Source: Candidatus Aenigmatarchaeota archaeon (GTDB lineage: Archaea > Aenigmatarchaeota > Aenigmatarchaeia > JACPZZ01). From it: DNA of 54,754 nucleotides. Location: assembly GCA_016177205.1 (NCBI GenBank), contig JACOVS010000039.1, positions 1 to 54,754 on the forward strand, read 5' to 3'. Position 1 is the stretch's first letter. Each line of letters begins with the position of its first letter. The notes under the pieces are model-generated. The model was not told where the DNA came from and ran no database searches. It was given only the letters and a program-made list of their open reading frames with translations. The translations under genes were made by a program, and so were the position numbers. Below, piece after piece: positions 3,890-54,754 of the stretch.

Positions 3890-4285
3890 TCAGGTGATTC
3901 CAGGCGGCGGACTAGGCGGCCCGCCCGGTGGTGAAGTCGTCGTAGTCGCTGCCGAAGCAACTCCGGGACAACCGCACCCGATTTTGACTTTTAACTTCTC
4001 GTCAGCGTCACCGCACGGCGTCGCATCGCCCGCATCAAGAACTATTCCCTTTGCCGCAGCACAAAGGCTTGAAGACGGGTCTCCGCTACAGCCTGTGTTG
4101 ACTAAAACCTGGCATTGTTTGTTAAATTCCGCCCTGGCCGCCTGGTTCGTCGCAAATGGGTTCCAGACGCCCATAAATACAGCAACGACAGCGATCAGAA
4201 TAATCACCGCGATCGCTAGAATAACAAGCATGTCAATGGGGAGCGAAACGCCTTTTTTGGTTGAGCTTTTTCCTAAAAAGGTCAT
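3890..4285 (-). CDS. type IV pilin-like protein (class III signal peptide), Cys-rich, Thr/Pro-rich tail
   Basis: N-terminus KKG|VSLPIDMLVILAIAVIILIAVVAVF. 6 Cys in the ectodomain. GCGCPG motif followed by TTTTSPPGGPPSPPPG. Confidence 0.75.
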   Translation of the reverse strand: MTFLGKSSTKKGVSLPIDMLVILAIAVIILIAVVAVFMGVWNPFATNQAARAEFNKQCQVLVNTGCSGDPSSSLCAAAKGIVLDAGDATPCGDADEKLKVKIGCGCPGVASAATTTTSPPGGPPSPPPGIT

Positions 4286-25699: not shown

Positions 25700-26445
25700 A
25701 CGGGAAAAAAACAAAGTCTTTGATAAACAGGATGACAAAAAAATATCCGGCTGTTGTCAAATCCATCTGGATGACCCCCTCTTCTGAAAAGGGCGAGGGC
25801 GACACGGTTATATTCCTTCTCGATGACACTAACCAGGTGGATTCCATAACAACTAACGAAATAAAGCTGGAGGCGCAAAAAATATCAAAAGCACTCAAGC
25901 TTCGCGGCAGGACTGGCCTGGTATTTTACAAGTTATCCGATTACTGGGAACTGGTCCGGCACGGCTCGCCCGTGACGTTCACGGAGATACGCGAGGGCAT
26001 TCCGTTATACGACCCGTCAGGCTTCTTTCTGCCGCTAAAAAAACTTTTGGTGGACGGGCGCGTGCCCGGCACAAAAGAGGCCATGAAATCGCTGATACAA
26101 CAATCCCCTCTGCGGCTGCTGCGTATAGAGCGCACGCACATGGTTTCAATAATGGACGCGCTGTCGTCCGCCGTCGTCGACGCAGCGCAAGCTCCTTTGA
26201 TGTCCGTTGGTGTGTCGCCGCCGGCGCCGAAAAAAGTGCCGGAACAATTGCGCATACATTTTGTCCGGAAAAGAAAATTGCCCCCCGAGTATGTGAAATA
26301 TTACGAGGACGTGATAAAAACCTGGAAGCTGCTGGAACACGGAGAATTGAAAGTCGTCGCGCCGGAAAAAATTGACGAGCTGGTTGAAAAGGCGACGCGT
26401 TTTGTCATTAAAATGGAAGAGCTTATGCAGAAGATAGGAAAATAA
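25696..26445 (+). CDS. nucleotidyltransferase-like protein with a degenerate active site, short form
   Basis: Homologous to the upstream gene (PLYDPSGFFLPLKKLLVDGRVPGT), but the GS/DxD region reads IWMTPSSEKGEGDTVIFLLDD. The start overlaps the upstream stop (ATGA). Confidence 0.65.
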   Translation: MNGKKTKSLINRMTKKYPAVVKSIWMTPSSEKGEGDTVIFLLDDTNQVDSITTNEIKLEAQKISKALKLRGRTGLVFYKLSDYWELVRHGSPVTFTEIREGIPLYDPSGFFLPLKKLLVDGRVPGTKEAMKSLIQQSPLRLLRIERTHMVSIMDALSSAVVDAAQAPLMSVGVSPPAPKKVPEQLRIHFVRKRKLPPEYVKYYEDVIKTWKLLEHGELKVVAPEKIDELVEKATRFVIKMEELMQKIGK

Positions 26446-33227: not shown

Positions 33228-34676
33228 TTAACTTCCAGCAGAATTAATATTAAACTGGCTGGTCAGTTCTTTTGCCGCGGCACGGATTTCTTCAACAGTC
33301 CTCTTCTCAGTTATCGCCCGGCCTACTATCCCATGCCAGTTGTCGCCAGCGACTTTTACCGCGTCTGATATCCTGCCGCCCTGCTCGACCAGCCCGGGAG
33401 ACGCAAACACAGGCTCAATGCCGGTCCCTTCGATAAGTTCACGGTAATGCGCTATCCTGTCGACCTTGTTTCCAGGCACAATAAAATGGTTAACGCCCTG
33501 CCTGGCAGCCATCAAAAACATTTCATCCAGGGCTTCGTCCGATATGTAACCGCCCTCGCTCCTCTTAAACCTCGGGTGCGTCATCTCCGCGCCCACAAAA
33601 ACCGTCAATCCCTGCTGCAACGCCTCACCTGTCCACGCAACCTGCGTTCGCGGGCCTGAAAGCGGGAATAATATTACCGCATCGAGCCCGGCCGCCTTCA
33701 GGTCTTTCATAAACTGTTTGGCTGTATTGGGAATGTCTGTACCCCCTTTCTGGTGGTCGTATATCAGGGGTTTTTTGGTGTGTTTTCTCGCAGCCTCAAC
33801 CCAGCGCTCCCAGCCCTTTCTTCCGGCGTGCGCGGGTATCTTGTAACCGCCTATGCGCGGGATGTCCGCAGTCGCTTCCACCAGCGGTTCGAAAGCCTCG
33901 TAAGGTACGTCACACGCTGGTAAGACGGTCCGACCCTCTATCAGTTTGTCGCCGCCAAGCCCGTATTTCTTTCTCACTTCCGCAGTTCCCCACGCGCGGA
34001 AATACAGCTTAAACGCCGCCTCGTCGGCCGGTGACAGCTTGTTGTTTTCTTTTAGCCAGTCAAATATCTCGCTGGCCGTCACGATCGGCTTGTAACGTGT
34101 GCCTTTTTCGCTGGCGAACTGTTCTATCGCAACCTCGCCGTCTTCGTTGATTTCCTGCCTGTCCACGGCTATGATGCCATAAGGCATTTTGACGCCGTTT
34201 GTTATCCTGCGCATGATTTCGTCCGCCTCGCGCTTAGTCTCGCTTGTCGTAATAACATCATCCACGGGAAGAATCACCGAACCGTCCGGAACAAGGCTCC
34301 CGACAAGCGTCTCCCTTTGCATTTGTTCCTTTGTCACGCCGGAGCCCGTGGCCTCGCCGTACGTCTTTGCGTCCTTTCTGTAAAACGCCCATCCCTTGTT
34401 TATGCCCATCTCCGCCAGGGCCGCGGATGTCGCTACGACCAAGGGTATGCCTTTGTTCGGTATTCCAAGAAGGACATCAAACTTATCCCCGACCGCGCTT
34501 TTGATGGCTTCCGCGTAATACCTCCCGGCTTTGCTGATCTTTTCGCCGTTATCGAAAGCCCCCACGTTCAGAAAGTACGGGGAATCCCTGCCGCTCTTTG
34601 TCCTGAAAGGCCCGCCGATTTTCAGGGCTTCCGTGTCGAGAAGAAACTGGATAAACTGCGCTTTGTACGGCTCCAT
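33228..34676 (-). CDS. pyrEF: fused orotate phosphoribosyltransferase / orotidine-5'-phosphate decarboxylase-like protein
   Basis: N-terminal half: ALKIGGPFRTKSGRDSPYFLN and PRPP loop LPVDDVITTSETK. C-terminal half: YDHQKGGTDIPNT and FIVPG, ODCase-like. Confidence 0.7.
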   Translation of the reverse strand: MEPYKAQFIQFLLDTEALKIGGPFRTKSGRDSPYFLNVGAFDNGEKISKAGRYYAEAIKSAVGDKFDVLLGIPNKGIPLVVATSAALAEMGINKGWAFYRKDAKTYGEATGSGVTKEQMQRETLVGSLVPDGSVILPVDDVITTSETKREADEIMRRITNGVKMPYGIIAVDRQEINEDGEVAIEQFASEKGTRYKPIVTASEIFDWLKENNKLSPADEAAFKLYFRAWGTAEVRKKYGLGGDKLIEGRTVLPACDVPYEAFEPLVEATADIPRIGGYKIPAHAGRKGWERWVEAARKHTKKPLIYDHQKGGTDIPNTAKQFMKDLKAAGLDAVILFPLSGPRTQVAWTGEALQQGLTVFVGAEMTHPRFKRSEGGYISDEALDEMFLMAARQGVNHFIVPGNKVDRIAHYRELIEGTGIEPVFASPGLVEQGGRISDAVKVAGDNWHGIVGRAITEKRTVEEIRAAAKELTSQFNINSAGS

Positions 34677-34790
34677 TTAGATCTTAGTTTAATAACAATG
34701 TCAGATATTTATGCTCTTTTTGCCTTCCTTTTTAATCGCTTAGGTCAATTAATCAAACAGGCAAATTGGAAGCATACCATACGATAACTA

Positions 34791-34822
34791 GAAGCGTATC
34801 CTATACCAATTGGGTATGTTTC
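34791..34822 (+). repeat. hairpin repeat Ha (11-bp stem including three G-U pairs on the plus-strand RNA, 10-nt loop)
   Basis: GAAGCGTATCC-TATACCAATT-GGGTATGTTTC. Confidence 0.6.
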
Positions 34823-34837
34823 AGTTCGCAGCGCTAG

Positions 34838-34898
34838 AAATATGTGCATCGGAAACTGACGCATACATAGTATGCGTCCGGTTGAAAAGCACATATTT
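34838..34898 (+). other. structured 61-nt element in the tRNA-Gln 5' flank, homologous to the core of the anticodon-loop intron
   Basis: Outer stem AAATATGTGC/GCACATATTT, shared TGTGCATCGGAAACTGA, inner hairpin GACGCATAC-ATA-GTATGCGTC. Confidence 0.6.
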
Positions 34899-34907
34899 CA
34901 GTCGAAT

Positions 34908-35103
34908 AGCCCCGTAGTGCAGCGGCCAAGCACGGCGGGCTTTGGGTAGTCACAAATTGAAGCTTGTGCATCGGAAACTGAAGCATACCTATGGTATGCT
35001 TCTAGCTGCAAAGCGCAAGCTTAAGCTAGAAGTTACCCGTAAACGGCGGAAGTGCTGAAGTGTAAAAATTTCGCACTGCCGATTTCGAATCCGCCCGGGG
35101 CTA
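34908..35103 (+). tRNA. tRNA-Gln(UUG) with two introns (about 34946..35034 at 37/38; about 35050..35083 at 53/54)
   Basis: Hand-folded cloverleaf. Acceptor AGCCCCG/CGGGGCT (A1-U72), U8, D-stem GTGC/GCAC with a GG loop. Anticodon stem GCGGG/CCCGT, loop CT-TTG-G|intron|A. T-stem GGCGG|intron|TTCGAAT-CCGCC. Discriminator A. Confidence 0.75.
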
Positions 35104-35111
35104 ATCAGCTA

Positions 35112-35143
35112 GAGGCATACCGTATACTGTATCGGTATGCCTC
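35112..35143 (+). repeat. hairpin repeat Hd (11-bp stem, 10-nt loop) 9 nt after the tRNA 3' end
   Basis: GAGGCATACCG-TATACTGTAT-CGGTATGCCTC. A half copy CGGCATGCTTC follows at 35153..35164. Confidence 0.7.
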
Positions 35144-35215
35144 GGCCTGAATATCGGCATGCTTCAGTCTAAAAACAAACACGGAAGTGTTTGTCAATTA
35201 GTCGTAGGTGTTTTA

Positions 35216-50068: not shown

Positions 50069-50299
50069 TCACCCCAGCAAAAGCCTTATGCCTATGATCA
50101 GCAGGAACAGGCCCGCGAATATCGCAACCAGAGTGAAGGGCCCGAACTCCAAGTCTTCCGTGTCAGGGAAGTATATTATTAAAAAAAGGCCAGCGCCTAT
50201 AAGCATCAACCCCCCAATTTGTTCGAAAACCACGCAGATCAATATAATATTGTACTCGGCCGGTAAAAAAGTTATTCTGCAGGCTGAAGCATACCGCAT
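50069..50299 (-). CDS. 2-TM miniprotein (true start probably internal, e.g. a TTG near 50239)
   Basis: LMLIGAGLFLIIYFPDTEDLEFGPFTLVAIFAGLFLLIIGI. The first ~5 codons of the track ORF (50299 down to 50286) overlap hairpin repeat He. Confidence 0.4.
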   Translation of the reverse strand: MRYASACRITFLPAEYNIILICVVFEQIGGLMLIGAGLFLIIYFPDTEDLEFGPFTLVAIFAGLFLLIIGIRLLLG

Positions 50300-50317
50300 A
50301 CTGTATCGGTATGCTTC
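50286..50317 (+). repeat. hairpin repeat He (11-bp stem, 10-nt loop), near-identical to Hd with compensatory arm changes
   Basis: GAAGCATACCG-CATACTGTAT-CGGTATGCTTC. Confidence 0.7.
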
Positions 50318-50319
50318 AT

Positions 50320-53399: not shown

Positions 53400-54754
53400 C
53401 ATTCACGGGTGGAAGGAATTGAAATATTCTATCGGAACTCCGTACACTGAGCTGTTTAAGCGCGCCTTCGAAGATGATGATATTATGTTGGGCAGAGCGA
53501 CGGTCAATATTAAGATTCCACACGATGACGCTATCTCGAAAACCATAGGAATTTATCGCAAAGCATTGCAATTCTGTGTTGATGTTGCTTGGGAAAAACG
53601 AATAAGGAACAACGTAAGATTGCACCCCTTCGTCTACAAAGAAATCAGGGGTTTCGGATTGCCGAGTCAACTCGCAATCGCTTGCATCAAGCAGGCCTGC
53701 GGAACCGTCAAACGGGCCAAATCCAGACCTATGATCAAAGGGCATTCCATGCGTTTCAACAACCCACGAAGTTTCTCCTACAGGCATGGAGTTCTCAGCC
53801 TTTCCACAATCGAAGGCCGCAAGAAGTTCAATGTCGCGCTTCCCAGATACGCCGAGAAATACATTGATTGGAAAATCAATGAAAGCGTCCTTTGGGTAGA
53901 CAGAAAAAACAGGATGTTCTTCGGTATCTGTTTTTCCAAAGACATTGACATTCCAATACGCTCCGCTCAACACAGGCAAGTTCTCGGTGTAGACGTCGGA
54001 ATAAAACACCTTGCCGTCACTTCCGACCGTAAATTCTACGGGAGCGTCATCCCTAAGATGCGCAGGCATCAGGAACATACTGCTTCCCTGCAAAGCAAAG
54101 GAACGAAATCCGCCAGAAGGCACCTCAAAAAGATTTCTGGCAGATGGACACGTTTTATGCGGTGGAAGAACCACAACATCAGCAGGGAAATCGTAAACAG
54201 TTTGGGAGAAGGCAACATCGTTGCATTGGAAGGAATAACAAACATCCGTTCCAACAGGGGAAAGAGGTTCAACAAGCAGCTGCATTCGTGGGCTTTCAGT
54301 CAATTGCAAAGCTACATCGAATACAAGGCTGTCCAGAGAGGTTGTCTGGTCGCTTATATCAACCCGCAATACACAAGCCAGACCTGCCGGATGTGCAATG
54401 AAATCGGGACAAGAAACAAAGGCTTCTTCTCCTGCGGGCATTGCGGTTATTCCTGCAACGCCGATCTGAACGCCTCTTTCAACATCAGAAACAGGGTCAA
54501 GCCACTGGCTATGACCTTCGGGCTGCCTGTAAACCAGCCTATTGTAGCAAGCAATGACGGACTTCTTAATGTCGAACATTTTGAATCTCCTGATCTTAGT
54601 TACAATGCCCACAGACTTTAGCCGTGGGTAAGTTTATGCGAGGTCACGCTTATAACGACCACAAATCATCTTTATTTTATGGCCGTGAAGATTTTTAGCA
54701 GTGAGAAACATAAGAATATTGGGCCTTACATCGATAAATTGCTGGGAAATTCCC
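53400..54754 (+). mobile_element. stand-alone tnpB element (IS1341/IS605-derivative type); ends not defined, the right end may lie beyond the window
   Basis: tnpB has no adjacent tnpA. About 130 nt of non-coding sequence follows the stop before the window ends. Confidence 0.5.
53419..54621 (+). CDS. tnpB: TnpB (IS200/IS605 OrfB-type RuvC nuclease); alternative ATG start at 53485
   Basis: RuvC-I LGVDVGIKHLAV, RuvC-II IVALEGITNIR, Zn finger CRMCN...CGHCG, RuvC-III CNADLNASFNIRNR. Confidence 0.85.
   Translation: MKYSIGTPYTELFKRAFEDDDIMLGRATVNIKIPHDDAISKTIGIYRKALQFCVDVAWEKRIRNNVRLHPFVYKEIRGFGLPSQLAIACIKQACGTVKRAKSRPMIKGHSMRFNNPRSFSYRHGVLSLSTIEGRKKFNVALPRYAEKYIDWKINESVLWVDRKNRMFFGICFSKDIDIPIRSAQHRQVLGVDVGIKHLAVTSDRKFYGSVIPKMRRHQEHTASLQSKGTKSARRHLKKISGRWTRFMRWKNHNISREIVNSLGEGNIVALEGITNIRSNRGKRFNKQLHSWAFSQLQSYIEYKAVQRGCLVAYINPQYTSQTCRMCNEIGTRNKGFFSCGHCGYSCNADLNASFNIRNRVKPLAMTFGLPVNQPIVASNDGLLNVEHFESPDLSYNAHRL

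Follow-up and report, generated by a model that had tools for sequence, protein, structure and literature searches.

Copies of a hairpin repeat in the leader and the anticodon-loop intron of an archaeal tRNA-Gln gene

Similar introns bounded by bulge-helix-bulge (BHB) motifs occur in different tRNAs of Thermoproteales, and the review's account of these cases infers that they spread at the DNA level (Fujishima et al. 2010, PMC4090602). The same 2014 review calls the mechanism of archaeal tRNA intron transposition unknown (PMC4090602), and a preprint on Asgard archaea found no general route by which tRNA introns arrive (bioRxiv 10.64898/2026.10.13.758758). The locus described here is a tRNA-Gln gene with one copy of a hairpin repeat in its 5' leader and another in its anticodon-loop intron. 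No description of this repeat family was found in the literature. Probably, the leader element and the intron core both belong, as independent copies, to a lineage-specific, non-autonomous and mobile palindromic DNA repeat of REP/MITE-like type.

As in the review's account of transposed Thermoproteales introns, homologous intron sequence bounded by BHB motifs is present here in different tRNAs and at different positions (PMC4090602). Unlike the introns of that account, the repeat is palindromic, is found also outside tRNA genes (in leaders, trailers and intergenic DNA) and in both orientations, nests in its own loops and belongs to a DPANN host, not a crenarchaeal one. With the bacterial REP, REPIN and BIME sequences it shares the form of short imperfect palindromes in many copies, which are lineage-specific, have either orientation, form clusters or nests and vary in the stem in a compensatory way (PMC3184786). 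The definition of REP/REPIN as short multi-copy extragenic imperfect palindromes in both orientations describes it well, with some of the copies inside tRNA genes. It differs from them in that no cognate RAYT/Y1 transposase flanked by the same palindromes was found, in having no GTAG-type tag, and by its intron copies within tRNA genes and its archaeal host. Prokaryotic MITEs are likewise small and non-autonomous, with inverted-repeat arms, high copy number and filled and empty sites (PMC10969869, PMC11602168), but the present repeat has no definable target-site duplication, no parent IS with matching ends was found for it, and the whole of it is one long hairpin in place of two terminal repeats around a core. 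A census of MITEs reports a high density in some DPANN genomes and no tie to tRNA introns (PMC11602168). Finally, sequence that is homologous to an intron or acts as one lies upstream of a tRNA piece in the split-tRNA leaders of Nanoarchaeum equitans and Caldivirga, and EndA can cut the leader-trailer duplexes of split tRNAs (PMC4090602). In contrast to these, tRNA-Gln is unsplit at its 5' end, and the copy is located upstream of position 1 with no leader-trailer BHB.

The tRNA-Gln gene and its repeat copies

The window, i.e. the whole stretch of DNA analysed, is the 54,754-nt contig C17 of genome G000, an assembly of 0.6 Mb in 50 contigs with 71.5% completeness (relatives are numbered G, contigs of G000 are numbered C and loci of relatives L). 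The 5' neighbour of its tRNA-Gln(UUG) gene is a pyrE-pyrF fusion gene on the minus strand with its end at 34676, and the other neighbour is a tRNA-maturation gene cluster (aTrm56, RNase Z and CCA-adding enzyme). The features referred to below are as follows; R1 is a covariance model of 77 positions and 22 pairs built from five full copies of the repeat.

34768-34828, plus strand: distal leader (nhmmer match 34766-34828; fold; sequence)
34835-34900, plus strand: leader copy of the composite repeat (R1, 73.2 bits, E 1.5e-14; consensus fold)
34908-35103, plus strand: tRNA-Gln(UUG) gene with two BHB introns, at 37/38 and 53/54
34908-34945, plus strand: exon 1, tRNA positions 1-37 (spliced sequence folds as tRNA-Gln)
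34946-35034, plus strand: intron 1, 89 nt, canonical 37/38 site (BHB score 23)
34957-35024, plus strand: intron copy of the composite repeat (R1, 78.7 bits, E 6.5e-16)
35035-35049, plus strand: exon 2, positions 38-53 (ARAGORN call on the spliced product)
35050-35083, plus strand: intron 2, 34 nt, T arm, 53/54 (BHB score 20)
35084-35103, plus strand: exon 3, positions 54-73, without encoded CCA (ARAGORN call on the spliced product)
35102-35145, minus strand: trailer copy, inner-type hairpin (R1, 48.1 bits on the minus strand; nhmmer E 5e-11)
50278-50319, minus strand: further copy, inner-type hairpin (nhmmer E 2.3e-8; alignment of six congeners)
53419-54621, plus strand: TnpB open reading frame, 400 aa, with a Cas12f1-like TNB domain, 133 nt from the contig end

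The unspliced gene is missed by ARAGORN (bacterial and intron modes) and by Rfam (gathering and E-value thresholds). Introns were located with a BHB scanner written for the purpose and run over a 500-nt region, the motif being defined as a 4-bp helix whose two strands are each followed on the 3' side by a bulge of 3 nt, cleavage taking place behind the second base of the bulge; the exon borders were set by hand. Introns 1 and 2 have the highest scores among the candidates compatible with the tRNA fold, the BHB of intron 1 being the best of the whole scan and that of intron 2 among the next best. Intron 1 is bounded by CTTT-GG|G ... GAAG-TT|A (H = CTTT/GAAG; h of 5 bp; h' of 3-4 bp, TAG/CTA) and intron 2 by CGGC-GG|A ... 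GCCG-AT|T (H = CGGC/GCCG; h' = AGTGC/GCACT, 5 bp). When both are removed, the 73-nt product is identified by ARAGORN as tRNA-Gln(ttg). Both introns have what is expected of archaeal BHB tRNA introns: the motif, a canonical tRNA restored by their removal and an endonuclease encoded in the genome. Orthologs of the 37/38 intron are present in all congeners. Intron 2 does not belong to the repeat family and is missing from the G002 ortholog.

Upstream of the gene (34725-34760) a CCTTTTTAA box is followed after ~20 nt by a CAATTAATCAA box; both are conserved in G000, G004 and G002, and only the CAATTAATCAA box is kept in G003. These boxes are probably the tRNA-Gln promoter (TATA box) and start region, and if so, both leader hairpins would lie within a transcribed leader of ~150 nt.

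The leader copy is composed of an outer stem, GAAATATGTGC (34837-34847) with GCACATATTTC (34889-34899), a 5' arm ATCGGAAACT (34848-34857), an inner hairpin GACGCATAC/GTATGCGTC (34858-34878) and a 3' arm (34879-34888). The corresponding parts of the intron copy are the outer stem AAGCTTGTGC (34960-34969) with GCGCAAGCTT (35013-35022), the arms at 34970-34979 and 35003-35012 and the inner hairpin GAAGCATACC/GGTATGCTTC (34980-35002). Both fold into a composite of ~77 nt with an outer stem of ~10-11 bp, a 10x10 internal loop and a GAAGCATACC inner hairpin of 9-10 bp, and the ~10-bp outer stems of the original prediction are thus present in each. That prediction had taken the leader element and the intron core for one module present twice. 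Their global alignment agrees with it, as 47 of 63 bases are identical and the score is 30, compared with -9.1 +/- 4.0 (maximum 6) for shuffled sequences (z ~10). The string described as nearly identical in both copies is an exact 17-mer, TGTGCATCGGAAACTGA, with exactly 2 occurrences in the 0.6-Mb genome (34843 and 34965), and the arms of the inner hairpins, which were said to covary, differ by a compensatory A-U to C-G change. The predicted similarity of the 3' segments holds in part: the strings are there as quoted, but they agree at only 5 of 10 positions. The 3' arm of the leader copy, CGGTTGAAAA, has diverged, and this makes its inner helix longer in the fold. The leader copy ends 8-9 nt before tRNA +1 (34908), where ~9 nt had been predicted, and the 8-nt spacer is AGTCGAAT.

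The short distance of 57 nt between the two copies, their common orientation and the shared 17-mer are what a recent local duplication within the tRNA-Gln locus, with no wider meaning, would leave behind, and the original prediction had itself named such a duplication among the findings that would speak against it. The copies are, however, 0.74 identical to each other, and copies in G004, G003, G006, G002 and contig C29 are 0.80-0.82 identical to one or the other of them. Because each is closer to copies elsewhere than to the other one, the two are independent and do not form a local pair. With at least 15 loci in G000 and hundreds of copies in the family, the duplication is refuted, and we see practically no chance left for it.

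The distal leader contains a half-arm GGAAGCATACC and then a hairpin of the family, GAAGCGTATCC (34791-34801) with GGGTATGTTTC (34812-34822), which has three G.U pairs on the tRNA strand. The trailer copy, GAGGCATACCG (35112-35122) with CGGTATGCCTC (35133-35143), is oriented opposite to the leader and intron copies. The copy at 50278-50319 lies between two small genes with no tRNA near.

Structure and extent of the repeat family

The repeat unit is a hairpin whose stem opens with GAA(A/G)C and closes with G(Y)TTC, and short asymmetric flanks give it polarity. The inner module, which is highly conserved, is formed by a 10-nt arm, a GAAGCATACCG hairpin and a second 10-nt arm; it often stands inside the loop of an outer GAAAC...GTTTC hairpin, resulting in a 77-nt composite. 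The polarity of the composite is seen with R1 as ~80-94 bits on one strand versus 50-65 on the other. Comparison of 26 unique composites from seven genomes shows that the outer stem is paired at 97.6%, versus 83.5 +/- 1.2% when the 3' partners are shuffled, that three of its positions are split ~50:50 between two Watson-Crick pairs, and that the inner hairpin and the two 10-nt arms are nearly invariant. Between genomes the inner module is 90-100% identical and the flanking genes are 70-82% identical. Conservation above that of the flanking genes fits either ongoing copying or purifying selection for function.

No Rfam family was found in the element at E values up to 10, apart from one chance match to a miRNA. 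Several known RNA classes were considered and rejected by inspection together with the lack of Rfam matches. A C/D box sRNA would need RUGAUGA, which is absent, and the internal loops are conserved, not variable; for an H/ACA sRNA there is no ACA after the stem, and the internal-loop sequences are again conserved between copies. A K-turn was rejected as well. As to small self-cleaving ribozymes, CUGA and GAAAC are there, but their arrangement is not that of a hammerhead. A BHB inside the composite, with the two AAA as bulges around TCGG/CTGC, forms 2-3 of its 4 pairs; the pairing is lost in copies with TCGT, and the geometry is wrong in copies of opposite orientation. A reading of the hairpin loops as a promoter (TATA box) was rejected too: it fits tRNA-Ile only, and in the Gln orthologs TATA-like boxes are conserved at places farther upstream than the hairpins.

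A search of G000 (~71% complete) with an nhmmer profile built from six copies gives 15 separate loci, the tRNA-Gln leader composite and the distal hairpin being counted as one. Those linked to tRNAs are the leader, intron and trailer of tRNA-Gln, the leaders of tRNA-Tyr, -Thr, -Ala and -Ile, the trailer of tRNA-Phe, the D-loop intron of tRNA-Ser(GGA) at C4 and the variable-arm region of a 320-nt class II tRNA at C28. The hairpin in the tRNA-Phe leader is below the nhmmer cut-off. The five loci without a recognised adjoining tRNA (the end of C15, the start of C18, C40, C46 and 50278-50319 of the window) are intergenic spacers or contig ends. Thus 10 of the 15 loci lie in tRNA genes or within 200 nt of them, compared with 9.8% of the non-coding DNA (P ~1.6e-7), and about 6 of 17 tRNAs in G000 have a leader copy. 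A search with R1 finds matches in all eight genomes of family f1 (10-49 per genome, both strands counted) and none in 33 genomes from 17 other families of the class. Across family f1 the copies amount to hundreds. The original prediction had proposed to look for further copies with a covariance model and for the same element in other tRNA leaders, and both searches succeeded, the latter for tRNA-Tyr, -Thr, -Ala, -Ile and -Phe. The copy numbers are underestimates, as the repeat breaks the assembly: one contig ends and another begins inside identical copies (C15 22688-22725 and C18 1-41). The genomes of the relatives were sampled around the matches. An ad hoc finder was used for tRNA genes, which makes the counts lower bounds.

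Orientation, nesting and empty sites

The repeat has the same sense as the host tRNA in the leader and intron of tRNA-Gln and in the leaders of tRNA-Tyr and tRNA-Ile, and the opposite sense in the D-loop intron of tRNA-Ser, the variable-arm insert at C28, the leader of tRNA-Thr and the trailer of tRNA-Gln. Copies are also nested: a triple nest of hairpins is located 3' of tRNA-Phe, double nests are found at C15/C18 and in G006, and at C46 the loop of the copy holds other hairpins, as an insert of 170 nt. Hairpins of a third family, TTGAGAAAA...TTTTCTCAA, were observed in the loops of GAAGCATACC hairpins, giving nests of the Russian-doll type (C29 ~4100-4150, C25 ~26285-26310 and C46 4325-4470 of G000; L049 ~1820-1870 of G006).

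Orthologous sites differ in their content among close relatives. The 37/38 intron of tRNA-Gln has a single outer-type hairpin, GAA(A/G)C...G(Y)TTC, in all congeners, with the inner module in its loop only in G000. In the leader of tRNA-Gln the composite is found only in G000; G002 has the inner hairpin alone (10 nt from +1), G003 an "empty" outer hairpin and G004 another hairpin, and there is nothing in G001, G005 and G006. The D loop of tRNA-Ser(GGA) is free of introns in G005 and G001 and has a one-hairpin intron in G004 and G006; in G000 the 60-nt module takes the place of the TTT loop in a hairpin of the G006 type. In the class II tRNA at C28, the loop of the variable arm is GCAA in G003 and G007 and contains the module in G000, G005 and G001; in G006 it holds a double nest, and in G004 the full composite, oriented the opposite way. 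Away from tRNAs, G002 has an empty site at 50278-50319, where five congeners have various inserts; the C40 copy is down to six bases in G002, and in G004 there is no insert at the C46 site. A multi-copy family with empty and filled sites in both orientations behaves as mobile, in agreement with the original prediction.

Homologous intron sequence is found in non-homologous tRNAs, namely at Gln 37/38, in the Ser(GGA) D loop and in the variable arm of the C28 class II tRNA, as well as in the D loop of tRNA-Thr and the variable arm of tRNA-Leu(UAA). Similar introns at different tRNA positions, as known from Thermoproteales (PMC4090602), together with the concentration of insertions in loops of structured RNAs (tRNA and hairpin loops), could suggest spread at the RNA level, in which an excised intron is reinserted by reverse splicing or promiscuous ligation and then copied back to DNA. 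The occurrence of both orientations relative to the host tRNA gene and of copies in intergenic DNA between protein genes makes this route highly improbable.

These observations point instead to a mobile repeat that would spread at the DNA level. It would land in hairpin loops, i.e. those of its other copies, of hairpins in the D-loop and anticodon-loop introns of tRNAs and of the variable arm, and also directly against tRNA 5' ends, and would persist where it is harmless, being tolerated around and inside tRNA genes. The mobile-repeat reading also has points against it. None of the TnpA and TnpB transposase genes of the congeners tested is tied to the repeat. Y1 TnpA (PF01797) is present in 2 of 5 congeners, where the IS ends carry the hairpins CCCCGCAC..GTGCGGGG and GGCGGGCT..GCCCGC, neither of them related to the repeat; all five have TnpB (20 matches in G004), with the reading frame at 53419-54621 of the window among the cases. 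An origin from IS200/IS605 ends was accordingly rejected, since the flanks of TnpA and TnpB have unrelated hairpins or no similarity. Nor could a clean target-site duplication be defined at the empty and filled sites compared, one of which shows only an ATTC/AATC-like microhomology. The conservation of the inner module above that of the flanking genes, and the regular spacing of the leader copies and the variable-arm insert, both considered below, are further points of this kind.

Processing of the copies and their relation to tRNA introns

The original prediction had raised the possibility that the splicing endonuclease removes the leader. In this case EndA, in place of RNase P, would make the tRNA 5' end at a splice-site-like leader or release a circular RNA. 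A weak BHB-like pairing of TCGG-AAA-CUGA (34849-34859) with UCAG-UCGA-AU|A (34898-34908) has its 3' cut exactly at +1. EndA is encoded as a single alpha-type protein of ~200 aa (PF01974 match at C49:11983-12255, E 2.5e-27), and RNase P RNA was not found in the incomplete G000 assembly. However, the pairing, with a score of 15, does not rise above the noise that ~40 candidates of the region make up, and the outer stem of 11 bp competes with it. Over 17 tRNAs there are 5 BHB candidates with a cut at +1, compared with 0-7 at other positions, so that +1 is not enriched. Of the 41 genomes searched (G000 included), 34 have RNase P RNA, as do 5 of 6 congeners, Rpp29 is encoded in G000 and Pop5 in four congeners, and the orthologous tRNA-Gln leaders of three congeners have no module at all. 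We consider leader removal by EndA very unlikely, and no leader-trailer BHB that would excise the whole tRNA was found by hand or in the fold for tRNA-Gln and tRNA-Ile. In view of these components of RNase P, the economical assumption is that ordinary RNase P takes off the leader. Under the mobile-repeat reading, RNase P or RNase Z would remove a leader or trailer together with the copy in it. At C49 11959-12835 (minus strand) tRNA-Phe, the triple-nested hairpin cluster and endA follow in succession, with the cluster ~20 nt from the endA start codon.

In 10 of 12 cases from several genomes, the distance between the end of the leader hairpin and +1 is 8-11 nt, with the spacer TAGCTA(A/C)AAC, which is the module's own 3' arm. 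This spacing may reflect where a short leader tolerates an insertion, a preferred target or a function, and it could point to a role in processing. A functional pre-tRNA RNA element conserved by selection, not by copying, is the rival that this regularity favours. Such an element may be a protein-binding or folding "clamp" hairpin preventing mispairing of the leader or intron with the tRNA body, or may set the distance between a processing enzyme and the acceptor stem. The strong covariation of the outer stem, the near-invariance of the inner hairpin and arms and the enrichment at tRNA genes agree with it, as do G.U pairs on the transcribed strand in some copies (34791-34822 and the outer stem of the Gln intron). 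On the other hand, A.C mismatches occur on the transcribed strand too (leaders of G004 and G002), the count of G.U versus A.C being ~5 versus 2, which are small numbers. The module is found in both orientations relative to the tRNA, only about a third of the tRNAs have it in the leader, and three congeners lack it in the leader of tRNA-Gln and two in the D loop of tRNA-Ser; it also has copies in ordinary intergenic DNA far from tRNAs, at sites which are empty in relatives. On balance, we regard a selected RNA function as unlikely, if more probable than the other alternatives.

Within a tRNA gene, a mobile repeat would ride in an intron removed by EndA at a BHB made of exon and intron-end sequence. 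The Gln 37/38 BHB is indeed made of anticodon-loop and intron-end sequence, and the repeat is cargo inside the intron. The variable-arm insert at C28, which counts against the mobile-repeat reading, has no canonical BHB. The conserved 3' flank RGTCG was considered as the intron-side strand of a BHB; it fits the D-loop introns of tRNA-Thr and tRNA-Ser only and fails at the anticodon introns, where this strand matches the anticodon loop, and it is left as a hint.

Tentatively, the hairpin modules may serve directly as the raw material from which new tRNA introns of archaea arise. An element that moves at the DNA level would then target hairpin loops in single-stranded form, among them the D, anticodon and variable loops of tRNA genes, and would be tolerated immediately, with its stable hairpin supplying the intron-side helix of a (relaxed) BHB. 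In a stronger version, the alpha-type endonuclease of DPANN archaea would take out the variable-arm inserts by a new mode of recognition, or the mature tRNA would retain them. One genus shows the module in all intermediate states: it lies free between genes, directly against tRNA 5' ends, nested within the hairpin loop of an existing intron and inserted in the variable-arm loop of a tRNA. Several of its sites have an empty ortholog in a congener, which makes intron gain by a mobile hairpin directly testable. If the raw-material reading is true, a mobile hairpin repeat would be a concrete source for new archaeal tRNA introns and would explain how they arrive, a point on which the review and the preprint cited at the outset have no mechanism or general route to offer (PMC4090602; bioRxiv 10.64898/2026.10.13.758758).

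Other introns of the genus were observed along with the repeat. ARAGORN finds only three tRNAs in G000, all intron-free, and the Rfam tRNA model has six above the cut-off. Most tRNA genes of this genome have one to several introns at non-canonical sites, as a consequence of which standard annotation gives a badly incomplete tRNA set; the tRNA complements of such DPANN genomes are badly under-called by standard tools. A second intron family, unrelated to the repeat, is shared by the anticodon-loop introns of at least six tRNAs and consists of a short A/T-rich hairpin followed by GA(T/C)CAAAAG (in G000: C1 883-1005, C6 3527-3794 and 3837-3973, C25 7474-7616, C29 6133-6306 and C32 21697-21874). 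The 320-nt class II tRNA gene at C28 8295-8614 (minus strand; anticodon Ser UGA or Leu UAG) has at least four insertions, and two of its introns, with the BHBs CGCC-GG|A..GGCG-AT|A and AAGG-CT|T..CTTT-AA|G, are kept over five genomes. A D-loop mini-intron of 21-27 nt with a clean BHB, GGCC-AA|A..GGTT-AG|G, is present in tRNA-Gln of G004 (L037), G001 (L038), G006 (L039) and G005 (L041) and missing from G000, G002 and G003. As both this mini-intron and the 53/54 intron differ among congeners, intron turnover within this one genus is rapid.
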